Assembly (NCBI GenBank): GCA_002368175.1 | Contig: AP018172.1 | Span: 285,599-349,598 of the forward strand | Source: Calothrix sp. NIES-2098 | GTDB taxonomy: Bacteria > Cyanobacteriota > Cyanobacteriia > Cyanobacteriales > Nostocaceae | Reading direction: 5' to 3' | DNA: 64,000 nt | Part shown: in pieces, positions 9,164 to 57,679 of the stretch | How the letters are laid out: the number at the start of each line of letters is the position of its first letter | Position numbering within the stretch: position 1 is the stretch's first letter | Made by a program: the position numbers and the translations under genes | Notes under the pieces: model-generated | The model's input: the letters and a program-made list of their open reading frames with translations, nothing else | The model's database searches: none | What the model was told of the DNA's origin: nothing

Positions 9164-10054
9164 ATGACTAATTTTAAAAAAACTATAAAATCGCTCCTCA
9201 GCAATCTCGCTCAAAATCCTTTAACTAAACCACTTTTATTATCTGTTGCTCGTACTGGTTTATTACCTCAATCAATCTGGCAACGCTTACCAGTTCAGGA
9301 AACTTTTTCTGTTTCACTGTTTGAGGGAAAATCTTTTAAATATTCAAGCATTGCTAATGATGGTATTGGTAGGCATCTGTTTTGGCGCGGCATTAAATCT
9401 TATGAGCCGGAAACGATTAAATTATTCTACAGATTAGTGCAAAAAGCTCATCTATTTTTAGATGTTGGTGCAAACACAGGACTCTTTACCTTAGTGGCTT
9501 TGGCTGCAAATGAAAACTCCCAAGTTATTTCATTTGAACCAGTTCCCAATGTGTATAAACTTTTAGTTTCTAATGTGAAGATTAATGGCTGGACTGAGCG
9601 AGTTCAAGAGCGAAACGAAGCAGTTTCTAATACTCTTGGCTCAACAAAATTACATATTCCTAGTGAAGATGTACCTAAGTCAGCTAGCCTAAATATTCAA
9701 GGATTTAGAGGTATGGAAGGCGCTCTGGTAGATGTGCCAGTAACAACTATCGATGCTGTTTGCACCAGCAATAAAAAAGTAGACTTGATCAAAATTGATG
9801 TTGAGGGATTAGAAGATAAAGTCTTGCAGGGAATGGAAAGGGTATTAAGCGAATCAAAGCCTACCTTAATTATTGAATGTAATCCTGACGATCCATTCCT
9901 AAATGTTGAGAGTATTCTGAGCAAATTTGGTTATCACTTTTTTCACGTACGCGCAGAAGGACCTGTACCGATGGATCGGATTGTCCCAGATGAAACAGGC
10001 CAGTATCGCAACTATTTATGTACTGTTCATCACAACTGGGAGGAAATTAATTAG
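9164..10054 (+). CDS. FkbM-family SAM-dependent methyltransferase
   Basis: DVGANTGLFTLVA SAM-binding motif and FkbM-like layout. The track ORF starts at GTG 9119, but ATG 9164 (MTNFKK) preceded by GGGTGG is the more likely start. Confidence 0.7.
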   Translation: MTNFKKTIKSLLSNLAQNPLTKPLLLSVARTGLLPQSIWQRLPVQETFSVSLFEGKSFKYSSIANDGIGRHLFWRGIKSYEPETIKLFYRLVQKAHLFLDVGANTGLFTLVALAANENSQVISFEPVPNVYKLLVSNVKINGWTERVQERNEAVSNTLGSTKLHIPSEDVPKSASLNIQGFRGMEGALVDVPVTTIDAVCTSNKKVDLIKIDVEGLEDKVLQGMERVLSESKPTLIIECNPDDPFLNVESILSKFGYHFFHVRAEGPVPMDRIVPDETGQYRNYLCTVHHNWEEIN

Positions 10055-44850: not shown

Positions 44851-45558
44851 AAGTCGGCGGATGGTTCCTTTCAAAGTGGCGTCTCCTGATGATGCAGCTA
44901 ACTGAAGGGAATGTTGCCACAATTAGCTAAAAAAGTGATTGCTTAACACCTATTTTGCCTTGAATAAATAGCTAAGTAAATAATCAGTTTTTGCAAATCT
45001 ATCTAAAGTAGTAAAAACTAATATCACAGATTTAATTAATATTGTTATATATCTCGATGATTTATGAAATTTTCTTGATATTTTCTACCTTGGTGTTATC
45101 CATTGTGGTAATCCTTCCAGCGATGTAGTTACTGCGATTGGGCAAAGTTACCAAAACCTCTGTTTGACTGCTCTGTGTCTAGATTGAAAAAGTAATTTTG
45201 ACAACATAGATAAGTTAGCTATCTCAGCCACTAAATTTAGGCTAATTTATAATTTTGAAACAATAATATACATACCTTAAGTTTTAATTGTTTTAGTAAT
45301 TGTTGGGCAGCAGGATAGACTAATTCACAACTTTCAAACCCTATGTTTTCGCCGGCTAATTTAATAATCAGCTAAGAAGAATTGTGCTGGTATTGAATTG
45401 GTATAAATTGCTGAAGATATATTTTGACTACGGTTCATACCTAAAATTCCTGATAGGAATATCAATTTGCCCAGCTATTCACCCACAATCAAAAGAGTAT
45501 ATGCGTACATTTTGCGCTATTAGTAATTAAATGTGAAAACGTTGGGAGAAAGCTCTAC

Positions 45559-47094
45559 ATGGCTCGCACCCCTACATTAACTTTCGATCGCGGTACACTG
45601 ATACTGCATCCACCACCACGCGGTAAAGCCTGGATGGACTATGCCACTTGGGACGATAGAGTGGAAAAATTTCGGATGCCTGCAATTCAATATCGTTCTT
45701 TAGTGGAAGCACTGCAAGCGGAAGAAGTTAACTTTATTGATGAGGCGAAGGAATTTTATCCTTTAGATTTGGTTGCAACTTTGGAAATGGAACCCTATCC
45801 CCACCAAAGTGAGGCTTTAGCAGCGTGGAAACTCGCAGGAAGACAAGGAGTAGTAGTGCTTCCGACAGCGGCGGGAAAAACTTATTTGGCACAAATGGCG
45901 ATGCAAGCCACACCGCGCACAACGCTAATTGTTGTTCCAACTTTAGATTTGATGCATCAGTGGTATGCACATCTGGTAGCGGCGTTTCCCGATGCGGAGG
46001 TGGGTTTGTTGGGAGGGGGTTCCAAAGATAAGACACCAATTTTAATTGCCACTTATGATAGTGCAGCTATTCATGCGGAAGCCTTGGGAAATCAATATGG
46101 TTTGTTGATTTTCGATGAATGTCACCATTTACCAACTGATTTTAATCGGGTAATTGCAGAATATGCGATCGCACCTTATCGTTTAGGACTCTCAGCTACC
46201 CCAGAACGCACCGATGGCAAACACGCTGATTTAAATATTCTCATTGGCAGAGAAGTATATCGCAAACGCGCTGAAGATTTAGCGGGGAAGGCGTTAGCAG
46301 AACATGAAATTGTCCAGATTAAGGTGAAATTATCCCAACACGAACGGGAAAAATACAACGAGTTAATTCAACTCCGCAACGATTTTTTACGAGAATCGCG
46401 GATTTCGTTGGGAAGTATTCAAGGTTGGCAAATGTTTGTGCAGATGAGTGCGCGATCGCAATCTGGTCGTAGGGCAATGTTAGCACACCGCGAAGCTAAA
46501 GAAATTGCCTTGGGTACGGATGGGAAGTTGCGCATTTTAGCTAATTTATTGGCGAAGCATTATCCTGAAAGAATTATTATTTTTACGGCTGATAATGCGA
46601 CTGTTTACCGCATTTCTCAGGAGTTGTTAATTCCGGCTATTACTCATCAAACACCTGTAAAAGAACGGCATGAGATATTAACTAAGTTTCGGGAGGGTGA
46701 ATATAATACCTTAATTGCTTCTCATGTGTTAAATGAAGGTGTTGATGTGCCAGCAGCTTCAATTGCAATTATTTTATCTGGGACTGGTTCAACTAGAGAA
46801 TATATTCAACGTTTGGGAAGGGTGTTGCGGAAGGGGAATGTGGAAGGGAAGCAGGCGATATTATACGAAGTGGTGGCTGAAGATACGAGTGAGGAAAGAA
46901 CTTCGGCGCGGCGTAGGGGGATGGAAAAGAGTAACGAACCGCCAAGACGCGAAGGACGCCAAGGGAAGAAGGAAAAGAAAGGACATTTGCAAGTTGTGTA
47001 TGGAACTGGGAAGGAAAAAAGTGCTAAGGCTGCGGAACAGTTAGAAATCAATTATTCAACTAAGCGCAGTGAAGATTCATCTGATTTAACATAG
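45559..47094 (+). CDS. XPB/ERCC3-like superfamily-2 DNA helicase with a low-complexity K/R/E-rich C-terminal tail
   Basis: Walker A VVLPTAAGKTY, DECHH box (FDECHHLPT), and motif VI QRLGRVLR. The XPB-like N-terminal damage-recognition region is present. The tail from about aa 440 is low complexity. Confidence 0.7.
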   Translation: MARTPTLTFDRGTLILHPPPRGKAWMDYATWDDRVEKFRMPAIQYRSLVEALQAEEVNFIDEAKEFYPLDLVATLEMEPYPHQSEALAAWKLAGRQGVVVLPTAAGKTYLAQMAMQATPRTTLIVVPTLDLMHQWYAHLVAAFPDAEVGLLGGGSKDKTPILIATYDSAAIHAEALGNQYGLLIFDECHHLPTDFNRVIAEYAIAPYRLGLSATPERTDGKHADLNILIGREVYRKRAEDLAGKALAEHEIVQIKVKLSQHEREKYNELIQLRNDFLRESRISLGSIQGWQMFVQMSARSQSGRRAMLAHREAKEIALGTDGKLRILANLLAKHYPERIIIFTADNATVYRISQELLIPAITHQTPVKERHEILTKFREGEYNTLIASHVLNEGVDVPAASIAIILSGTGSTREYIQRLGRVLRKGNVEGKQAILYEVVAEDTSEERTSARRRGMEKSNEPPRREGRQGKKEKKGHLQVVYGTGKEKSAKAAEQLEINYSTKRSEDSSDLT

Positions 47095-47145
47095 TTAGCA
47101 ATTCAAACTTTCTGCGCCTCTGCGCCTTTGCGCGATCCAAATCCC

Positions 47146-48360
47146 ATGTTACCTACAGAACTACTAATGCACCGCCACAATGGCGAAGAAATCATCCCTA
47201 AAAGATTAAAGATTGACGATAAACATTTAAATTTAGCTAATGAGTTAATCAATTATTTTCAAGCAGCTGTTGGTAAAACTCAGGGGATGCTTGAACGCCA
47301 ACTGGCAGATTTTGAAGGAGATACCACAGATTATCGTGTCAAACGGGGTTTAGCTTATATTCTTAAAAGCAGTTTTTGTACTTTTGAGGTGGTGAGTCCT
47401 CTAGAACCGCCAATGTTAAGAGAAAGGGTATTTGCGCTATCTGCTAAATCTGCTCCTAGTAAAGAAGCAACACAACTTACTTTGAGTAAAATAGCTGATG
47501 AATTAACTCATGAACTTGAGCGAGAAATTTTACCGCAACAGGTTATTGATGGACTGTATGCTGATTTAGCTGAAAACAAAATTTTAACGGTTTTTGATGC
47601 ACCCACAGCGCAAGATTTATTGCATCGATATAATTTATCGCAAGTGCAGGGAGTATTTTATAAAGCTAGCCAATTAATATTAAATGCGCATCGCAATGTT
47701 CCGGGAGAATATAAGCTGTTATTTCGCTATTTGAAGTTATTTCAATTGATGGCTTATATTGAGGGTGATGCCGACCACGGTTTTACAATTACCATTGACG
47801 GGCCGACGAGTTTATTTAATCCTAGTACGCGTTATGGGTTGGCGATCGCTAAACTTATCCCCGCTTTACTCCACGTGACTCGCTGGAGTCTTTCTTCGAC
47901 TCTGCAAACTCGCGACGCCTACACCAATACCTGGAGAACGGGACGTTTTACCCTCAATTCCGAATGTGGTTTAGTCTCGCACTATTCTCCAGGTAAACCC
48001 TACGATAGTATGTTAGAAGCATCCTTCGCTGATAAATGGGATGCGCTCAAAAGTGAATGGGCATTAGAGCGAGAAGTTGATTTAATTCCGATTCATGGGA
48101 GTGTGATGATTCCCGATTTTCGCTTAGTGCATCCTGATGGTAGAAGTTTTCTCTTAGAAATTGTTGGTTATTGGCGTCCAGAATATTTACAAAAGAAATT
48201 TTCTCAGGTGCGACGTGCTGGACGCGACGATTTAATTTTGGCGATTTCTGAACGATTGAATTTAGAAAAAGCTGGGGTGAAATTAAATGATGTCCCGGCG
48301 CGAATTATTTGGTTTAAGGATAAATTATTGCCGAAATCTGTGTTAGCAGTAATGGAGTAA
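47146..48360 (+). CDS. DUF790 / Bax1-like nuclease (XPB partner)
   Basis: Gene directly downstream of the XPB-like helicase. Its size of about 400 aa and the N-terminal MLPTELL... are typical of Bax1-family proteins as I recall them. The start is taken at ATG 47146; the track ORF begins at TTG 47128. Confidence 0.5.
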   Translation: MLPTELLMHRHNGEEIIPKRLKIDDKHLNLANELINYFQAAVGKTQGMLERQLADFEGDTTDYRVKRGLAYILKSSFCTFEVVSPLEPPMLRERVFALSAKSAPSKEATQLTLSKIADELTHELEREILPQQVIDGLYADLAENKILTVFDAPTAQDLLHRYNLSQVQGVFYKASQLILNAHRNVPGEYKLLFRYLKLFQLMAYIEGDADHGFTITIDGPTSLFNPSTRYGLAIAKLIPALLHVTRWSLSSTLQTRDAYTNTWRTGRFTLNSECGLVSHYSPGKPYDSMLEASFADKWDALKSEWALEREVDLIPIHGSVMIPDFRLVHPDGRSFLLEIVGYWRPEYLQKKFSQVRRAGRDDLILAISERLNLEKAGVKLNDVPARIIWFKDKLLPKSVLAVME

Positions 48361-48377
48361 TGTTAGCAATAATCAGC

Positions 48378-49073
48378 TTACAAATCCCAATATTTTTTAC
48401 GCCGCCAATACTCAGCAACTCTTGTTTCCCATTGCTCCCAATAATATTTAATCGTATCCGTTTCTAACCAAAAAACCTCTGCCGACATCTCAGGAATCGC
48501 CACAACCAACAACGCATGATTTATCTGAATACCAAAATCTCCATAATATTTATTTGCTGCGCCTATGTATGCTGCAAGTTGCAGGGGATGTTCGTACAAA
48601 CGCTCAATTGCACCTTTAGGTTTGTCAGATGTTTTCCACTCACAAACACAGGGTATACCTTGATAGCTAGCAATACAATCAACCTTGCCAGAATACTTTA
48701 AATCATAGTGAAAAACAGAGCCTTCAACGAGTCTAATGGTATTAATTTCTTGTAAGACTGGCTTGATACTTTCCCAATAAGGACGACTGGCTTCGGAACA
48801 AACAGGATTTTCACCTAGAAGATAGCGTTCAATTTGCTTGTGTGTCTTCGTTCCCCGACGACTAGCAGCAGTAGTAATGCGAGATGCTTCTTCTGTACCA
48901 ACACGCGCCTTCCAGTTTATTAGGCGATCGCGATCGGCTTGGGGTTTAGTGGCGTTTAGTATAGTGGTGACGCTAGGGAGGCGATTTCCAAGCTCATCCA
49001 TATAATATTGTTTGCCATTTTCTCTCAGAGATTTGGCATTAATACGTGGTAAAAGTTGGATATCAAATGGCAT
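48378..49073 (-). CDS. PD-(D/E)XK nuclease superfamily protein (RecB/Cas4/lambda-exonuclease-like)
   Basis: Motifs VDCIASY ... CEWKTSDK (D ... E-x-K) followed by QLAAY (QxxxY). Confidence 0.55.
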   Translation of the reverse strand: MPFDIQLLPRINAKSLRENGKQYYMDELGNRLPSVTTILNATKPQADRDRLINWKARVGTEEASRITTAASRRGTKTHKQIERYLLGENPVCSEASRPYWESIKPVLQEINTIRLVEGSVFHYDLKYSGKVDCIASYQGIPCVCEWKTSDKPKGAIERLYEHPLQLAAYIGAANKYYGDFGIQINHALLVVAIPEMSAEVFWLETDTIKYYWEQWETRVAEYWRRKKYWDL

Positions 49074-50074
49074 TAGTAATTGGTAATTAAGAAAGCCTTG
49101 AAAAACTGAAGTTAATATTGAGCGATCGCTAATTTTAATGAATTAGTAATGAGTTAACGCAATAAGTCTAGCACTACTTCTCCACCAGGGAATGGCAAAA
49201 CCAAAAAGTTTGGGAAACTATTGCGTTGGATGAGTTTCCCTGCTTGCTGTACTACAAAGCAGAACAGTAGCCCTGCGCTTAAGCGGTGTTAGCGTTTCCC
49301 TAGCAGAATAGGCTTCCTAGCTATTTAATATCGCTATGAATTTACGTCTCTTGATATAGATAAAATCCTCCAGAAGAGGGTTTTAATTATTATTGTTAAT
49401 AATTTGATCGCTTTTTAATTACTATGAATTTAATAATAAAAAGTTTATTAACAAAATAATGAATTCTCCTTGGAAAAATCCTTTACCACTAGAAAAATAC
49501 TCGTCAGAACGAGTTGTTATCTACTTCCACAATAATCAACAATGGGTGCCAATTAAATACTGTTATCTATTAAAAGCAGTTGAACTTTACCAAAAAACAA
49601 TAAATTTATCAGGCAAAGAAGTTTTCATATTTCCTCCCGATTTAGATCCTAATAAATTTAATTAATGGTCTTAAATTTTACTATTATTAGTTGGTCTTTA
49701 GCGCTTTTTTTAATTTATTATCCTCTGAATAAACTAAGAAAAATTTGAGATTAAGCTCAATATTTACAATTTATATTTGCTTAGATACACTCAACAAGTT
49801 GTCGCTATTAGCAAATTTTCTTAACAAGATTTCGCAAATACACAAGCGACAAGGCGATCGCGAGTGCCTAACTATGATAATGAGCAAATACTAACTTTTG
49901 CAAAGAGACAGAAATTTACGTAATTATATGGTTGCTATATGTAAAATTTACAGATGAGCATGGTGATAGGTTAATACCATGTTGGATTCTCGATTTTAAA
50001 TCCTAGATTTTGCTCAGTTTCTTAATGATTATTTAAAGATTTCCAATTATCGTTAAATTGACATAGATCGTGTT

Positions 50075-50545
50075 ATGCCTAATTCATCGTTTATAGCTTC
50101 CAGCCAGAAAAATGCTCCAACCAAGCGGGATGTGAAGCAGGTTCCGTTTGTTGAGTTATTTAATCATCGCGTCCAGGGAGTAGTTTCTAGCGGTTCTGAT
50201 ATTGAACGGGTTTACGTTTCTTTTTTTGAAGCAGGAACGTTAGATTTTTATTGCAGTACAAATAACAATCGTCCTTGCGGTGGTTTGGGAGGCTATCCCT
50301 GCAAACATTTACAAGCTTTGATGAAAGAAGCGATCTCAGCTTACGGTATTGACCAAGTAATTAATTATCTTAAGGTTCCTGGCGACCTCAATCAAATTAC
50401 CTCCCCCCAGGATATTCTCAACCGTCGCGGTACAGTCAAAAAAGAACCAGCCAGCGAAGTCTTCAGCCGCTTTTTAAACTATCTCCGCTACCTAGAATTA
50501 CAAACCTCCAACTCTCCTCTCCCTGAAATGAGTTGGTTTGTTTAA
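50075..50545 (+). CDS. SWIM zinc-finger domain protein
   Basis: YCSTNNNRPCGGLGGYPCKHLQAL fits the CxC-x(n)-CxH SWIM signature. Confidence 0.55.
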   Translation: MPNSSFIASSQKNAPTKRDVKQVPFVELFNHRVQGVVSSGSDIERVYVSFFEAGTLDFYCSTNNNRPCGGLGGYPCKHLQALMKEAISAYGIDQVINYLKVPGDLNQITSPQDILNRRGTVKKEPASEVFSRFLNYLRYLELQTSNSPLPEMSWFV

Positions 50546-50583
50546 TCATCGTTAGCTTTAATTTTGAATTTTGAATTGTAAAC

Positions 50584-51972
50584 ATGGCTTTCCCCGGCGC
50601 ATTGCATCAATTAAGTGAAAGCAATCAAGAAATATTCGAGTTGATTGCAAGTTTAGATGAGTGTTTTATTACTGGCTTTGCGAATTTAGATGAGCAACAT
50701 TTACAAACTTTACAGGCTTTGGGGCGTGTATTTACTGGCACGCCTCTACAACAATCTTTAGCTGATGCGACTGCGGCAATTACTACAAATGAGTTTGTAG
50801 ATAAGCATTTTGCTGTGTTGGCAAGTACACGAGCAGCTATACAAGGTGCAATATTTGATACTTTACTATCTCAGGCGAGGAGTTTGTTAGGACGGAAAGA
50901 AATAGCTGATATAGAGTTAGACTATGAAGCCAGCGAAGCGCCAAATAACGTCAAAGTGCTGTTAGCAAGTGTGCGTCACTGGTTAATGGAAATTGCTTTA
51001 ATCGGTTATGCACGTTTAGATATCGCCACTTTGGTTCCGTTTTTAGGGACTCTGGAACAAATTCAAGCGGAACCTTTATTAGTTAGACAAGCTGCTTTAC
51101 TGACTGGCTATTTTAATGAATTGATGCGCAATCTTCCCGTCGCTGATAGTGCAGCAATACCTAAATATCGTTGGGTTGATTTGTGGACTCAGGCGATGTT
51201 AGGCACTGTATGCCCAGCTATTTTACCGCAATCGTCTTCAATATCGGGAAATTTAGAAATTTTAGGTTTAGATTTACGCCAACACGCCAATTTAGTTAGT
51301 TTCATCGCCTATGGGTTGCTAAATGCAAACAATCAAACTCAACTAGTGCGAGTTAGCCAGTCAGCTTACAAGGTAGATGCAATTAATAATGAGCAAATTT
51401 GGCTGTTATTTCCCAATGCGGCGGTGTTATTAGATGCGTTTGCACAAAACCGGGTATTGCAGATTCAAGATGTACCTTTGCTACCTACCGGAGATTTATT
51501 GTGGCAAGGTCAAGGCGAACTTGGTCAAAATTATAACTTGATGAAGCGGGCGGCGGAATTTTTTGCTGAGAATACAGGTAATAACTTGATTTATTCTACA
51601 GTCGCAGCGTGCGATCGCCATCCCATCCAAATCGCGGAACCGATATATCTCAGTAATTATCAAGTCGTCAAAAATGACGAGAATCTTCTTTTAAGTTGGG
51701 GTGATGCGGGTGAACTCAGCATTGCTAGCGAACGTATCAGTAATTTATCAGAACTAAATTTAGACATAATCGCCAAATCTCAGCAAATCTTCGGTTTATT
51801 GCGCTTCGATGCGGGTAAATGGTCAGTCCAACCTTTAGCAGTAGCAGTAAAAAACAAAATCACATCTACCGGACAAACCGCAGCGTCAGTCATTGCGAAG
51901 AAAGATTCCATTAAAAATAGCGTTGTCGGAATCTTGCAAGAACGTTCTAGCAGACTACTGCGTAAGGGTTGA
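50584..51972 (+). CDS. hypothetical protein (no recognisable domain), member of the SWIM-VWA-MoxR cluster
   Basis: 462-aa ORF on the same strand, tightly spaced with its neighbours. I recognised no motifs. Confidence 0.5.
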   Translation: MAFPGALHQLSESNQEIFELIASLDECFITGFANLDEQHLQTLQALGRVFTGTPLQQSLADATAAITTNEFVDKHFAVLASTRAAIQGAIFDTLLSQARSLLGRKEIADIELDYEASEAPNNVKVLLASVRHWLMEIALIGYARLDIATLVPFLGTLEQIQAEPLLVRQAALLTGYFNELMRNLPVADSAAIPKYRWVDLWTQAMLGTVCPAILPQSSSISGNLEILGLDLRQHANLVSFIAYGLLNANNQTQLVRVSQSAYKVDAINNEQIWLLFPNAAVLLDAFAQNRVLQIQDVPLLPTGDLLWQGQGELGQNYNLMKRAAEFFAENTGNNLIYSTVAACDRHPIQIAEPIYLSNYQVVKNDENLLLSWGDAGELSIASERISNLSELNLDIIAKSQQIFGLLRFDAGKWSVQPLAVAVKNKITSTGQTAASVIAKKDSIKNSVVGILQERSSRLLRKG

Positions 51973-51981
51973 GGAAAAATC

Positions 51982-53409
51982 ATGGATACAGAACAAATTG
52001 CTCAACGCCGTCAAGTTGTATACTGGCGCTTACTAACGAGTATGTTTGGCTTCAGCGAACAGGGTGCAAATTTTGAACAAATGGCGACGGAAGTTGTCAG
52101 CGAGTTAAATTTACCCCCATTAATCCTCGACCCTAATATTAGTATTGAAAATTTACTGCACCGCTACCCAGAATTAGAGGCAGATTTTAATCATCCCATA
52201 ATTCCCGAAGACGACACAACACCGGAAGCAGAAACCGCCACCCTACGCCGAGGCTTAGTTTTCTCTAAATTACTCCTGAATGCTTTCGGCCCCAACACCC
52301 AAACCGGAGTTGTCACCGCGCAACAATACGCGCAATGGCTAAAAGATGTGGGATTTTTAGAAAAAGCTTTGGGATGTCAACCAGGAAGTTTACGCGGACA
52401 TGGGCCGGGAATTGGGAAAAATCCTGGACAGCAAAATCAAGGACAAGGTAGCAGTCAAAGTGGCGGTATGGGTGCGGGTTTAGGTACTGGTGGCGGTTTC
52501 ACCATTACCGAAGAACAACTGCGCGCTACCCTGAAAGCTTTAGAAGGCGAATTAATTCACCGTATGGCTTTACACGAAGTCCTCAAAGACGACAGGTTAG
52601 CCAGTCAACTTACACCATCAATGGCTTTGGTGGAACAGCTATTACGAGAAAAGGCGAATTTATCAGGAAATGCGCTGAAAAATGCCAAACGGTTAATTCA
52701 AGAATATGTAGACGAACTCGCGCAAGTTTTGCGATTACAAGTCGCGCAAGCTGTCGCCGGCAAAATTGATTATTCAGTTCCACCAAAAAGGATATTTCGC
52801 AACTTAGATTTAAAGCGGACAATTTGGAAGAATTTAACTAATTGGAATCCAGAAGAACAGAGGTTATTTGTTGATAGATTGTATTACCACCATACAGCCA
52901 AGAAAAAAACACCAACTCGCATGATTGTAGTAGTTGACCAATCAGGTTCAATGGTGGATGCGATGGTGCAATGTACAATTCTCGCGTCAATTTTCGCCGG
53001 ACTTCCCAATGTAGATGTGCATTTATTAGCGTTTGATACGCGAGTCATTGATTTAACAGCTTGGGTACATGACCCCTTTGAGGTTTTATTACGAACTCAA
53101 TTAGGTGGAGGGACGCATATTTATGCGGCGTTAGTGGAAGCGGCACAAAAGATTTTAGAGCCAAATAATACAGCGATGGTGTTAATTTCTGATTTTTATG
53201 AAGGTGGTAGCGACCAAGTTTTATTTGATTATATTAAATCGTTGAAAGAGTCGGGGTTGCATTTTATTCCCGTGGGTGCGGTGACAAGTTCTGGCTATTT
53301 CAGTGTGAATCAATGGTTTAGGGATAAGTTGAAGGAGTTGGGGATGCCGATTTTAACAGGGAGTCCGAAGAAGTTAATTCAGGAGTTAAAAAAGGTGATA
53401 GTAACTTGA
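51982..53409 (+). CDS. von Willebrand factor A (VWA) domain protein with a Gly-rich linker
   Basis: C-terminal MIDAS motif VVVDQSGSM plus downstream T and D residues. A GQGSSQSGGMGAGLGTGGG linker precedes it. Confidence 0.7.
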   Translation: MDTEQIAQRRQVVYWRLLTSMFGFSEQGANFEQMATEVVSELNLPPLILDPNISIENLLHRYPELEADFNHPIIPEDDTTPEAETATLRRGLVFSKLLLNAFGPNTQTGVVTAQQYAQWLKDVGFLEKALGCQPGSLRGHGPGIGKNPGQQNQGQGSSQSGGMGAGLGTGGGFTITEEQLRATLKALEGELIHRMALHEVLKDDRLASQLTPSMALVEQLLREKANLSGNALKNAKRLIQEYVDELAQVLRLQVAQAVAGKIDYSVPPKRIFRNLDLKRTIWKNLTNWNPEEQRLFVDRLYYHHTAKKKTPTRMIVVVDQSGSMVDAMVQCTILASIFAGLPNVDVHLLAFDTRVIDLTAWVHDPFEVLLRTQLGGGTHIYAALVEAAQKILEPNNTAMVLISDFYEGGSDQVLFDYIKSLKESGLHFIPVGAVTSSGYFSVNQWFRDKLKELGMPILTGSPKKLIQELKKVIVT

Positions 53410-53457
53410 AAAATATTTATTTTTTAACACACAATTCTTTCTCATTCTTCTTCTTTG

Positions 53458-53523
53458 TGACCTTCGCGCCTTCGCGGTTCGTAAAAAAATAAACCACGAA
53501 GACGCGAAGAACGCGAAGGGAAG
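53458..53523. repeat. GC-rich imperfect hairpin repeat (intergenic, after the VWA gene)
   Basis: CCTTCGCGCCTTCGCGGTTCG - AT-rich loop - CGAAGACGCGAAGAACGCGAAGG. A related copy lies at 54748-54830. Confidence 0.55.
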
Positions 53524-53565
53524 AGAGTTTAAGAGAGATTTTACATTAATTATTAGGAGATAAAA

Positions 53566-54720
53566 ATGGCAAAGGCTAAAAGTAATACTACAAGTAGCGA
53601 GACTAAAGATAATACTGTCATGCTGCGCCAACCAGCCGAATTAAAATATGCAGAAGAATTAGAATATTTAGCCTCAATTGATAAAGGTACAAAACCCTTT
53701 TCTTGGCGACTGTCGCCGCAAATGGTACGCACCTTTGTATTAGGAAGTACCCCATCGCAAAAATTAGACCACCAAATTGAACAGAAATGGTACGGAGATA
53801 GTGCGATCGCAGAACGTGCTATTGTCACTTTAGCTTCTGACCGGGGTTTACTCTTAATTGGCGACCCCGGTACAGGTAAAAGCTGGTTAGCAGAATTACT
53901 TGCAGCAGCAATTTCTGGGAATTCCACCTATGTAGTTCAGGGAACTGCGGGAACAACAGAAGACCAAATTAAATATTCTTGGAATGTGGCGATGGTAATC
54001 GCATCTGGTCAATCCCGCGATTCTTTGATACCCTCACCCATTATGACAGCCATGCATAGCGGTGCAATGGGCAGATTTGAGGAATTGACACGCTGTACTT
54101 CCGATGTGCAAGATGCACTGATATCCATACTGAGTGAAAAGTATATTTCCATTCCCGAACTAAAGATAGATAACGTAGCTTTCGCACAACCCGGGTTTAA
54201 TGTCATCGCCACAGCCAACAGCCGCGACAGGGGTGTCAATGAACTTTCTTCAGCGTTGAAACGGCGGTTTAATTTCGTACATATGCCTGTGGTGACGAAT
54301 AAGAAACAAGAAAAAGAAATTATCCTCTTCCGCACCAAGGAATTAATGAATCGTCACGGCTTTGAAGTGGATGTTCCGCCAACATTATTAGATGTATTAT
54401 TGCAGACCTTTGCCGACTTACGCGAAACCAGCGCCGCCGCTAGTTCCGACGACCAGCGTTTAGAATCGGCGCTTTCTACAGCCGAACAAATCGGTGTGTT
54501 AGAAGATGCAATTTTACACAGCCGATATTTTGGTGCGACTAATTTAGAAGCGGGTGCATTAGCTAAATCATTAGTCGGTACTTTAGTACGTCGTCAACCA
54601 GAAGATATTTCTGTGATGAATCAATTTTGGCACGCCGTTGTAGAGAAGCGCAGTCAAGAATACAAAGGTGAATGGGAAGACTTTCTCGAAGGTGGGAAAC
54701 AAGCGATGGGGTTATTTTAA
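53566..54720 (+). CDS. MoxR-like AAA+ ATPase
   Basis: Walker A LLLIGDPGTGKSW, Walker B and sensor region NVIATANSRD, and arginine finger SALKRRF. A GGAGA ribosome-binding site precedes the ATG. Confidence 0.7.
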   Translation: MAKAKSNTTSSETKDNTVMLRQPAELKYAEELEYLASIDKGTKPFSWRLSPQMVRTFVLGSTPSQKLDHQIEQKWYGDSAIAERAIVTLASDRGLLLIGDPGTGKSWLAELLAAAISGNSTYVVQGTAGTTEDQIKYSWNVAMVIASGQSRDSLIPSPIMTAMHSGAMGRFEELTRCTSDVQDALISILSEKYISIPELKIDNVAFAQPGFNVIATANSRDRGVNELSSALKRRFNFVHMPVVTNKKQEKEIILFRTKELMNRHGFEVDVPPTLLDVLLQTFADLRETSAAASSDDQRLESALSTAEQIGVLEDAILHSRYFGATNLEAGALAKSLVGTLVRRQPEDISVMNQFWHAVVEKRSQEYKGEWEDFLEGGKQAMGLF

Positions 54721-54747
54721 GCATTACGCAAAAACCTCTCAAACTCT

Positions 54748-54830
54748 TCCTCCTTCGTGTCCTTCGCGCCTTTGCGGTTCGTTTCTATCTTTTATTCTCA
54801 CGCAAAGGCGCAAAGACGCAAAGAAGAACT
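54748..54830. repeat. GC-rich hairpin repeat (intergenic, after the AAA+ gene), same family as 53458-53523
   Basis: CCTTCGCGCCTTTGCGGTTCG - loop - CGCAAAGGCGCAAAGACGCAAAG with a perfect 11-bp stem GCGCCTTTGCG / CGCAAAGGCGC. Confidence 0.55.
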
Positions 54831-54856
54831 CCAAATATTTGGAAACTTCCTAAACT

Positions 54857-57679
54857 ATGAGCCTACCCACTGCATTCAACGCACTCCAAGAACAACTCCT
54901 CAACGCGGCGGAAAAATTCGCTACTGATGCACAACCATTAAGCGAAATGCTAACCGCTTTAATCAAAGATGTAGAAAAAGCCAGCAGCGAACCCCTAGAA
55001 ATTTTCCCCGTATGTCACCATTCCCCATCCTCCGCTTTACAAATGGTGCGACGGTTACGGGAAAAACCGCCGAAAGTCATCTACTTAGAACTATGCGAAG
55101 ACTTACAAAACACCGTGGAAAATTTACGTGATTGTAAATTACCCGTCGCTTTACAAGCCTTCGCTGCCGAATCTGAGCATTTTTCGCCCAAAATCATGCC
55201 TTTGAGTGTGGTTGCACCTATAACTGAAGCTTCCGCAGAATATCAAGCGATCGCATTTGCACTCCAACACCCCGACACTCAATTAGTCTTTGTCGATCGC
55301 GCTGTTGATTTTGTCTTTCAATGGGAACCTCCTGATAAAAAACTGGCTGAAGAATCTGAAGAACCCGCCAGCGATGAAGCGAAAATGCATGGTTCGGCGG
55401 TAGGTGTAGAAGTAGGTAACCTCGTCCCCACTTTTGACCAATTTTTAAGCTTTTTACTCCGCAACTCCAATACTCGCCACTTTTCGGAATGGTGGGATGA
55501 GTATGTAGAAACAGCAATTATCGGCGCAGACTACGATACTTACCGCCAAGTCATGTTCCTCATCGGTAGCTTAATGCGCCGCTTAGGAACTCGCAACAAA
55601 GATATCGAAATCGACCGCCAGCGCGAACGCTATATGTGGACTTCCATGAAAAAACACATGGCGGCACATAATATTGCACCTGAGGAAGCTATCTATATAT
55701 GTGGTGCAGCGCACTCTGCTAGTGATGTAGAAGAATACAGCGTTACTAATAATAATCTCTGGGAAATCCCGGAACGCACCCAAACTAAATGGTTATATGG
55801 TTTAATTCCTTCCAGTTTTGCGGCTATTGAATACCAATTTCATCACCCGGCGGGTACGGTATCGCTAGCAGAAGCGACTTGGAAAAAAAATCTCAAGGTT
55901 ACAGGCTTAAAAGGATTTTCGCTCAATAAAGAAGAGAAAGCAACTAAAACTAAACCAAGTCCTGTTACAGCCACCAATTCCACTCTCGCAGCCTTCTTAA
56001 CTCGTCCCCCAGAATTAGCTAAAGCCGATACCGAACAATTATTGCAATGGTGCGCTGATATTGTCGGATTAGCACGTAAAAATGCCTATTTAGCGAGTAC
56101 CGCTGACTCTATCGCCATTTATCAAACCTCAATGTTGCTAGCGGGGATGCGGAACCGAATGCACCCCACACCTTACGATTTCCAAGATGCAGCCATAACT
56201 TGTCTCGAAAAAGACCGCACTCCCAAAAAACGCAATATTTACCAACTTTGCCAAATTTTACTCGGAGGCGATCGCATTGGTACGGTTGGTTACGCTTCTT
56301 TACCTCCCCTAGCGCAAGATGTGTATGACAGACTTCAACCTTTAGGAGTCAACCTACTTGCACAAACCAACCAACGCGCCTTAATGGATTTCAAGCAGCA
56401 ACCGGAACTTTTACCATGTTCGGATGTGCTGTGGCGATTGCATTATTTGTTGGGTGATACGATTGTCAAACCCATTATGGGCGATCGCAGTCTTGGTTCC
56501 AAACCGATTCAAGAATCTTGGGAAATTCGCATCGGTAAATACCAGCGCCATCTCATTATGCTTGGTTATGAAGGTGTCAGCATCGAGCAAGTTTTAGAAC
56601 AGCGTCTCAAACAAACAGCTTTCTCTCCCCAAGCCAAAACCAGCGATGTTCTCAAAGCCACAGAAGATAGTATTTTATACGCACGCAGCCTCCGCTTAAC
56701 GCAAGAACTCGGAGAACACGCGATTTCTCTCCTCAAACAAGAAACTGGTGTCAGCGATGCACCCCAAGTATTTGAACGAGTCCGCAGGTTAGTCCATTAC
56801 TACCGCGCCACACCCACAGGCTTACCACAATGGATAGAGCGTTTTGTTACTACAGGCTACGGACATTACGCTACCTTACTACCCCAAGCCTTTGCAGATA
56901 GGGGAACTACACCCGAACAAATCGCCGGGATGCTAAATTTTATCTTCACCCTAGAAAGTTTGGCGCTATCTCTCGGTTGTAACCGCAGTCAATTATTAAT
57001 CGGTGTCAAACAATCCAGCCAAGGGTTAGACGACCCCGCCAAAATAGGTTTATTGTGGACAACCGAATGGTTACTAACATTAAGAAAATTAGAAGAAATT
57101 CGGGAATTCTTCAATGATGTAATTAACAACGAAATGTTAATTAAATCTTTCCCCGAATACTTAAATGGGTTTATTTTATCTTTAACATTTGCACCCAGAA
57201 TTAGTAAATTTGTCGTCGAACTGTTGAGTAAATTATTCGCCACAGTTCCCGATAAAATTTTATTACCTTGGCTACCCAGTCTGATTCTCAAACTGCGACC
57301 CCATGCTCAAATCTTGCAAGCATTAATCAAAGAAGGCTCAAGTAATTTCCCGAAAAATTTAGCTGGCTTTAATAGCTGGGTTCCCGCCTGGTCAAAACCG
57401 CAAGCTGAAATTAAAGAACAGGTCAAACAAGTCGAGGCTGTACCAACACTCAGCGAAAATGAGTTAAAAATCCGAGAATTTGTGTTTAATTCTCCAGCCA
57501 CAACCAATGCGCTAGCTAAACTACTTGGTATTGAAAATTTAACTTGGCAAGAAAATTTAGAAGCAAAGATAAATTTAAGCGATCGCTTATCTGAAAAAGA
57601 GCTAAAAATGCAAGAATTAATTACTACTCATCCAGCTACATTAAACTACTTTGCTGGCATGATTAATTCAACATTTTGA
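54857..57679 (+). CDS. large hypothetical protein (940 aa), terminal gene of the SWIM-VWA-MoxR cluster
   Basis: Long ORF with good coding potential and no domain I can name. The C-terminus contains two degenerate copies of about 35 aa (SENELKIREFVFNSPATTNALAKLL / SEKELKMQELITTHPATLNYFAGMI). Confidence 0.55.
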   Translation: MSLPTAFNALQEQLLNAAEKFATDAQPLSEMLTALIKDVEKASSEPLEIFPVCHHSPSSALQMVRRLREKPPKVIYLELCEDLQNTVENLRDCKLPVALQAFAAESEHFSPKIMPLSVVAPITEASAEYQAIAFALQHPDTQLVFVDRAVDFVFQWEPPDKKLAEESEEPASDEAKMHGSAVGVEVGNLVPTFDQFLSFLLRNSNTRHFSEWWDEYVETAIIGADYDTYRQVMFLIGSLMRRLGTRNKDIEIDRQRERYMWTSMKKHMAAHNIAPEEAIYICGAAHSASDVEEYSVTNNNLWEIPERTQTKWLYGLIPSSFAAIEYQFHHPAGTVSLAEATWKKNLKVTGLKGFSLNKEEKATKTKPSPVTATNSTLAAFLTRPPELAKADTEQLLQWCADIVGLARKNAYLASTADSIAIYQTSMLLAGMRNRMHPTPYDFQDAAITCLEKDRTPKKRNIYQLCQILLGGDRIGTVGYASLPPLAQDVYDRLQPLGVNLLAQTNQRALMDFKQQPELLPCSDVLWRLHYLLGDTIVKPIMGDRSLGSKPIQESWEIRIGKYQRHLIMLGYEGVSIEQVLEQRLKQTAFSPQAKTSDVLKATEDSILYARSLRLTQELGEHAISLLKQETGVSDAPQVFERVRRLVHYYRATPTGLPQWIERFVTTGYGHYATLLPQAFADRGTTPEQIAGMLNFIFTLESLALSLGCNRSQLLIGVKQSSQGLDDPAKIGLLWTTEWLLTLRKLEEIREFFNDVINNEMLIKSFPEYLNGFILSLTFAPRISKFVVELLSKLFATVPDKILLPWLPSLILKLRPHAQILQALIKEGSSNFPKNLAGFNSWVPAWSKPQAEIKEQVKQVEAVPTLSENELKIREFVFNSPATTNALAKLLGIENLTWQENLEAKINLSDRLSEKELKMQELITTHPATLNYFAGMINSTF

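Follow-up and report, generated by a model that had tools for sequence, protein, structure and literature searches.

We found that a 64,000-nucleotide (nt) stretch of contig AP018172.1 from the filamentous cyanobacterium Calothrix sp. NIES-2098 (hereafter the window; all coordinates are positions within it) carries a two-gene xpb-bax1 operon, in which a gene for an archaeal-type XPB helicase is directly followed by a gene for Bax1, a predicted endonuclease of the DUF790 family. Our analysis makes it likely that this locus is a chromosomal, vertically inherited operon orthologous to the XPB-Bax1 pair of archaea, where such pairs are best known, with structure-specific incision for genome maintenance as its most probable function. 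An earlier note on the same DNA had described three open reading frames (ORFs), at 45559-47094, 47146-48360 and 48378-49073, as a trio of one helicase and two nucleases that resembled a defence or DNA-processing island. All three ORFs were located at these positions and the first two kept the identities given to them; the third turned out to be a nuclease of a different kind, and we found no support for the three genes acting as one module. In Nostocales, a large bacterial order for which UvrABC is expected as well, the archaeal XPB-Bax1 machine is a core component that has been kept stably and under strong constraint, and genetically tractable Nostoc and Anabaena strains could help to address what XPB-Bax1 does in vivo.

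The XPB helicase

The first gene (45559..47094, + strand) encodes a protein of 511 amino acids (aa), which by its sequence is a short archaeal-type XPB helicase with a damage-recognition domain (DRD) and predicted helicase activity. Its predicted architecture comprises the DRD, HD1, a thumb insertion, HD2 and a charged C-terminal tail, and the Pfam scan returned XPB_DRD, ResIII, Helicase_C and ERCC3_RAD25_C in this order. The XPB-like N-terminal region perceived in the earlier note is a real damage-recognition domain, since residues 7-63 match positions 1-57 of the 57-position profile XPB_DRD (PF18458, E=1.6e-26). The XPB-type motifs listed there (GKT, DECHH, QRLGRVLR) are likewise all present: the SF2 helicase motifs comprise AGKT at residues 105-108 (motif I), DECHH at 186-190 (motif II), SAT at 212-214 (motif III) and QRLGRVLR at 417-424 (motif VI), and GKT, DECHH, SAT and QRLGR are kept in all 72 full-length Nostocales XPB orthologues.

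Two short archaeal XPBs that were crystallised together with Bax1 align with the window protein from end to end, namely AfXPB of A. fulgidus (PDB 2fwr/6p66_A; E=2.6e-102 over residues 7-457, with the A. fulgidus N-terminus included) and StXPB2 of S. tokodaii (E=7e-101). The putative thumb (ThM), inserted between HD1 and HD2 at residues ~225-330, aligns to both of them without gaps. The C-terminus of the window protein carries a tail rich in K, E and R (residues ~455-511). Pairwise comparison with relatives gave a ratio of nonsynonymous to synonymous substitution rates (dN/dS) of ~0.03 for XPB.

Bax1

The second gene (47146..48360, + strand) encodes 404 aa, counted from an ATG. Its assignment to Bax1/DUF790 came from the earlier note, and the profile check confirmed it decisively: PF05626 (DUF790) matches with E=1.7e-156 and 521 bits, compared with a cut-off of 28.8, and the match spans positions 1-386 of the 387-position profile. 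The protein also matches every solved Bax1 in the PDB by sequence (E=5e-30 to 6e-25), with an identity to archaeal Bax1 of 23-27%. For its AlphaFold2 model (pLDDT 78, pTM 0.68) we obtained eight PDB fold matches with E<=0.001, all of which are Bax1 chains; these predicted fold similarities range from E=1e-23 to 2e-27 at TM values of 0.58-0.67 over ~400 aligned columns. As judged from sequence and model together, gene 2 is a full-length Bax1/DUF790 with the predicted Bax1 fold, consisting of N-terminal, Cas2-like and nuclease domains. An upstream TTG at 47128 is a possible alternative start, but the first residue in the Pfam match is the one encoded by the ATG.

In the 404-aa numbering, the predicted acidic triad of the nuclease domain consists of E291, D324 (in IPDF) and E338 (in LEIVGYW). 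E291 corresponds to the LE(EE) motif at 273-276 of AfBax1, D324 to D305 and E338 to E318, the AfBax1 triad being E275, D305 and E318. This triad is invariant in the family alignments and in all 80 of the Nostocales loci compared. At the N-terminal site, D140 (in YADL) aligns to AfBax1 D133 and is invariant in the family alignment; the second acidic residue lies one position off, E143 aligning to AfBax1 E136 (AfBax1 site: D133, E135). Apart from this offset, the alignments place all residues predicted to be needed for the archaeal mechanism in the window proteins. The dN/dS values of bax1, again pairwise with relatives, were 0.05-0.07.

Operon structure and conservation of the pair

Three features are the basis for regarding the two genes as an operon: they lie on the same strand, they are separated by a spacer of 51 nt (47095..47145; 52 nt in the earlier count) in which we found no terminator-like site, and 58 of 77 relatives show an overlap of the two ORFs. 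In these 58 loci the XPB ORF extends into the DUF790 start, typically by 71 nt, which leaves no spacer at all. In the window, the XPB ORF stops earlier than in the overlapping relatives, and the genes are set apart by the spacer, which bears a three-fold direct repeat, (C/T)TGCGC(C/G). The earlier note had called this a GC hairpin repeat; a hairpin or attenuator was rejected, as the predicted fold is no better than that of shuffled sequence (z=0.35).

The co-occurrence of XPB and DUF790 was surveyed with one genome per species, and at least 579 genomes encode a DUF790 relative. All synteny counts given here refer to the best 80 loci, which are all labelled Nostocales or are metagenome-assembled genomes (MAGs) with Nostoc-like sequence; cyanobacteria of other orders lie outside these counts. 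DUF790 is 83-97% identical in the best 80 species genomes, and XPB lies directly upstream of it in 77 of them. The MGME1-like nuclease gene, which is the third gene of the supposed trio, occurs within 8 kb of DUF790 in only 32/80 loci, always in convergent orientation, and its homologues are unlinked to XPB and DUF790 in the more distant cyanobacteria Chlorogloeopsis, Coleofasciculus and Trichocoleus. Because adjacency of the pair (77/80) so clearly exceeds that of the MGME1-like gene (32/80), and because the latter is unlinked in three distant cyanobacteria, the conserved unit is the two-gene xpb-bax1 operon. The trio is an adjacency that was inherited within one sub-clade and was tightened by deletion in this genome: the stop codons of bax1 and the MGME1-like gene stand tail to tail with 17 nt between them in the window, compared with 203-2783 nt in the 32 loci. 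A conserved three-gene module was therefore rejected, with 80 Nostocales loci and the three more distant cyanobacteria showing that the adjacency is lineage-restricted.

In the remaining 48/80 loci the MGME1-like gene is absent from the neighbourhood. These include N. punctiforme PCC 73102, where a DEAD-box helicase gene and the gene for IF3 occupy its position. With regard to the possibility, raised in the earlier note, that the trio might stand universally beside housekeeping genes, the pair is indeed stable and in some genomes lies beside valS or IF3, but the trio is not conserved. Upstream, the window and its relatives have in common a gene for a TPR protein and one for a large, PAS-rich hybrid histidine kinase, the latter divergent from xpb and present in 35/80 loci. 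Beyond this set, the XPB-DUF790 pair is adjacent in Latescibacteria in a metabolic gene context, and in Methylomirabilota, also in a metabolic context, XPB lies 5 kb from DUF790 with endonuclease V in between.

Three MAGs labelled 'Acetobacteraceae' (L038), 'Chroococcales' (L036) and 'Leptolyngbyaceae' (L086) carry a DUF790 that is 86-90% identical to that of Nostoc, together with a Nostoc-like XPB, which suggests that they are mis-binned Nostocales contigs and not true occurrences in those taxa. A PIN/VapC-like ORF directly follows DUF790 on the same strand in 25/80 loci, at ~240-600 nt past the DUF790 stop (in locus L012, for example, at 9454-9906) and before the MGME1-like gene. It is missing from the window between bax1 and the MGME1-like gene.

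Proposed mechanism

Archaeal structures and biochemistry (PMC7293015, PMC7672443) are the basis of the mechanism that we propose for the Calothrix pair. By analogy, XPB would, driven by ATP, bind the DNA duplex at a distorted site, bubble or fork and open it up, while the N-terminal domain of Bax1 would dock on the thumb and HD2 of XPB. The C-terminal restriction-endonuclease-like domain of Bax1, with its predicted triad E291, D324 and E338, could then cut the displaced strand near the junction of single-stranded and duplex DNA. As in cyanobacteria at large, UvrABC is expected in the Calothrix host. XPB-Bax1 would most likely work in parallel with it, for example in the repair of bulky lesions or crosslinks or in fork processing. 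The convergent gene for an MGME1-type single-stranded DNA (ssDNA) exonuclease would be independent of this process and would adjoin the operon only in one sub-clade.

Several observations weigh against this proposal. Both proteins stay well below the curated equivalog models of NCBIfam: XPB scores 198 bits with NF045503 (repair_heli_XPB; cut-off 610) and is by sequence a homologue outside that equivalog, and Bax1 scores 165 and 140 bits with NF053694 and NF053695 (cut-off 500), which are narrow archaeal lineage models. Because the archaeal equivalog cut-offs are not reached, XPB and Bax1 represent a divergent bacterial branch here, and their substrate could differ. The RED motif, which follows motif III, reads E-R-T-D at XPB residues 216-219 (window 46204-46215), so that R and D are retained; R-T-D is found in 72/72 full-length Nostocales orthologues, where AfXPB has R-E-D and StXPB2 has R-D-D at the aligned position. 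Three loci, from Fischerella and Westiellopsis (L071, L079, L081), encode a DUF790 that is ~85% identical with intact motifs and have no XPB within 8 kb; in one of them, Fischerella L071, DUF790 lies between a phosphorylase gene and valS. In a Desulfurellaceae MAG (L091) there is likewise no XPB within 6 kb of DUF790, which stands in a metabolic context. In these genomes XPB can have moved elsewhere, or DUF790 can act alone, as it may do wherever an adjacent XPB is lacking. A regulatory tie to DNA damage did not emerge either: no match to the cyanobacterial LexA box was found in the intergenic region upstream of xpb (44923..45558), and matches across the window occur at chance level, so that LexA/SOS regulation was rejected. 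Finally, the in vivo role of XPB-Bax1 is unsettled even in archaea (PMC13024598), and no functional studies of bacterial XPB-Bax1 pairs were found in the literature searched.

The MGME1-like nuclease

The third gene (48378..49073, - strand) encodes a predicted PD-(D/E)XK ssDNA exonuclease of 231 aa and is convergent with bax1. Its product shows 100% identity with a protein of Calothrix sp. NIES-2098, and the window matches that organism. The earlier note had read the gene as a RecB/Cas4-like nuclease of the PD-(D/E)XK type with a D...EWK...QxxxY signature. The PD-(D/E)XK class, the signature and the convergent orientation were borne out, with D132, E145-W-K147 and Q165xxxY169 kept in 32/32 neighbouring orthologues, and the PDDEXK_1 profile of Pfam was reached marginally (25.2 bits compared with a cut-off of 22). 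The RecB/Cas4-like label was not. Residues 30-228 match positions 108-314 of human MGME1 (mitochondrial genome maintenance exonuclease 1; PDB 5zyt/5zyu/8xa9; E=2e-30), that is, its whole catalytic domain, and the protein also matches the phage family phrog_298 'exonuclease' (6e-44). A Cas4 identity was rejected, with TIGR00372 at 17 bits compared with a cut-off of 65 and no cysteine after QxxxY; CRISPR and cas genes were not found among the window ORFs scanned. From its sequence, the third gene is thus clearly a predicted homologue of MGME1-type ssDNA exonucleases and not RecB/Cas4-like.

Like MGME1, the window protein covers the whole catalytic domain with D...(D/E)WK...QxxxY intact. It differs in being a free-standing bacterial chromosomal protein of 231 aa without the mitochondrial targeting region. 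None of the bacterial members of this family appears to have been characterised. The dN/dS of the gene is ~0.1 (pairwise with relatives), and the protein is kept at 64-92% identity across several cyanobacterial lineages. Homologues also occur in 962 phage records, among them T4-like cyanophages at ~33% identity, where they are labelled 'exonuclease'.

Alternative explanations

Alone or together with the third nuclease, XPB and Bax1 might instead recognise and cut foreign DNA as an anti-phage or anti-plasmid defence system. The XPB core does match two defence helicase models, PADLOC PbeA (1e-53) and NCBIfam dnd_restrict_1 (5e-32), the operon borders a slot in which relatives carry genes of the DndB/DndC-like, STAND NTPase or toxin-antitoxin kind, 25/80 loci have a PIN-like ORF after DUF790, the pair is found on megaplasmids of Deinococcus and haloarchaea, and Feder and Bujnicki left a 'selfish character' possible (PMC1189080). 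However, the PbeA match is one to the generic SF2 core, pairing XPB residues 72-449 with positions 247-641 of a 672-position profile, and the PADLOC scan of the window revealed no Pbe or Dnd partner genes. DUF790 itself matches no PADLOC model, and searches of 50,697 phage records and of IMG/VR yielded no homologue; its only plasmid occurrences are on Deinococcus megaplasmids (45-51% identity, together with the helicase) and haloarchaeal replicons. A modification or sensor component was not found, and the contexts in other phyla are metabolic. The presence in all 80 best Nostocales genomes, at one syntenic position and with dN/dS values of 0.03-0.07, runs directly counter to the patchiness and fast turnover expected of defence genes. 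Borders of a mobile element were also rejected, as tRNA genes, Rfam matches and convincing direct or inverted flanking repeats were all lacking. Because it is syntenic, constrained in dN/dS, without PADLOC, phage or viral matches and without mobile borders, xpb-bax1 has the pattern of a vertically inherited maintenance pair and not that of a defence island, and we consider a defence function highly improbable. The island proposed in the earlier note survives only in part, in that the DNA past the third gene is a variable slot with defence-like cargo in some relatives; the pair itself is fixed across Nostocales, where purifying selection on it is strong.

It is also conceivable that XPB, Bax1 and the MGME1-like protein form a three-component pathway, in which XPB-Bax1 would incise the DNA and the MGME1-like enzyme would degrade the released flap or single strand. 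The third protein is an intact homologue of ssDNA exonucleases, its gene adjoins the pair in 32/80 loci with an orientation that never changes, human MGME1 was proposed to need a helicase that exposes single-stranded DNA (PMC4222359), and the Coleofasciculus homologue lies near recA, exonuclease VII subunit genes and a NurA-domain gene, which makes a repair role plausible. But convergent genes cannot be co-transcribed, the gap of 203-2783 nt in relatives often holds the PIN-like ORF or other genes, and the MGME1-like gene is absent nearby in 48/80 loci and unlinked in Chlorogloeopsis, Coleofasciculus and Trichocoleus. The family is moreover common in phages that lack XPB-Bax1, and shared ancestry in one sub-clade is enough to account for the adjacency, so that such a pathway seems unlikely. 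Still less probable, and about on a par with defence or slightly below it, is an action of the pair on non-damaged DNA, for example in the processing of transcription bubbles or R-loops, in analogy to the XPB subunit of eukaryotic TFIIH. What XPB does in archaea and bacteria has been called elusive (PMC13024598), no DNA-damage regulatory site lies upstream of xpb, and the operon is divergent from the gene of a PAS-rich hybrid histidine kinase (35/80 loci). Nothing that we found points specifically to transcription, however, and Bax1 is by its sequence a predicted DNA endonuclease that retains acidic residues at both active sites. To our knowledge, bacteria are also without a TFIIH-like apparatus. 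Incision in genome maintenance by XPB-Bax1 remains the reading that we prefer. An extension of it, to which we give only a small chance, is that Nostocales, which are desiccation- and UV-tolerant, and Deinococcus keep an archaeal-type XPB-Bax1 incision pathway independent of UvrABC, which would serve lesions that UvrABC handles poorly (interstrand crosslinks, protein-DNA adducts, collapsed forks), with the neighbouring MGME1-like enzyme as flap or gap processor in the Nostoc/Calothrix sub-clade. If true, this pathway would be a second, 'eukaryote/archaea-style' excision route in bacteria.

Relation to known systems

The archaeal XPB-Bax1 pairs of A. fulgidus and S. tokodaii (6p66, 6p4f, 6p4o, 6p4w) share with the Calothrix pair the two-gene arrangement and the short XPB architecture, and for Bax1 the domain order, the predicted fold and the acidic residues of both nuclease sites, with the second N-terminal one offset by a position. 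The Calothrix pair differs in its occurrence in a bacterium, in the low identity of its Bax1 to archaeal Bax1, in scores below the equivalog cut-offs and in R-T-D; its XPB also has the extra charged C-terminal tail, which overlaps the bax1 start in most Nostoc. The closest named relatives outside cyanobacteria are the pairs of DUF790 and DEAD/DEAH helicase in Deinococcus, with 45-51% identity and the same adjacent helicase. These pairs reside on megaplasmids and not at a conserved place on a chromosome, and other genes (topA, NucS fragments) surround them. Twelve Deinococcus plasmids carry the helicase-DUF790 pair; on plasmid pDEIPE01 of D. peraridilitoris (L090, 7577-15163) it adjoins topA and two NucS-domain fragments.

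Among bacterial XPB-family SF2 helicases, ATPase, 3'-5' helicase and annealing activities were shown for Rv0861c of M. tuberculosis (PMC3353954). The same paper reports a conserved N-terminal domain, 120-130 residues long, that most archaea are said to lack, A. fulgidus among them. Unlike actinobacterial Rv0861c, the window XPB resembles the short A. fulgidus form in an end-to-end alignment and has Bax1 beside it. Balasingham et al. (2012) placed XPB in 'few, if any' cyanobacteria and noted that an XPB-Bax1 complex had not been identified in any bacterium (PMC3353954). Feder and Bujnicki (2005) had associated DUF790/COG3372 with COG1061 helicases in Archaea and Cyanobacteria and suggested a role in repair or recombination while allowing for a selfish character (PMC1189080), and Steczkiewicz et al. 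(2012) reported that DUF790 co-occurs with ResIII/helicase domains and described a Cyanobacteria-Deinococci grouping (PMC3424549). Public annotation uses the names 'DUF790 family protein' and 'DEAD/DEAH box helicase family protein'. The cyanobacterial pairing of DUF790 with a helicase is thus already known from surveys since 2005 and from database annotation, and is modest as a discovery.

The surroundings of the operon and the downstream variable slot

Upstream, a region of 636 bp (44923..45558) separates xpb from the divergent hybrid histidine kinase gene. It is AT-rich and presumably holds the promoter; promoter-like matches are not enriched in it. Downstream, ~1 kb of AT-rich DNA lies past the MGME1-like gene, with a GC content of 31% at 49001-50000, and the MoxR-VWA genes that the earlier note had seen nearby were found as well (VWA_CoxE and AAA_5/MoxR). 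They are part of a separate variable slot that starts past the third gene: none of the 80 loci has any of the four cluster genes tested (orf156, orf462, VWA and MoxR) beside XPB-DUF790, and the DNA corresponding to window 49074-57679 varies across relatives. In the Tolypothrix/Nostoc linckia group it holds genes for a DndC-like protein (PAPS reductase), DndB and HNH together with dnd-associated genes, in N. paludosum a STAND NB-ARC-TPR protein gene with toxin-antitoxin genes, and in Dendronalium the housekeeping genes cysK and cysE, which follow the MGME1-like gene. The window has the AT-rich DNA and the MoxR-VWA-DUF5682 cluster in this place. Its downstream genes and those of the Tolypothrix-group loci have none in common within 10 kb, and this comparison did not reveal where the slot ends on the right.

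The cluster in the window consists of five co-oriented ORFs at 50075-57679 (+ strand), encoding orf156, orf462, VWA_CoxE, AAA_5/MoxR and DUF5682. Neither orf156 nor orf462 has a match in Pfam or NCBIfam; on visual inspection, a CxC...CxH pattern in orf156 looks SWIM-like. The five-ORF cluster presumably resembles the yehLMPQ gene set of E. coli.

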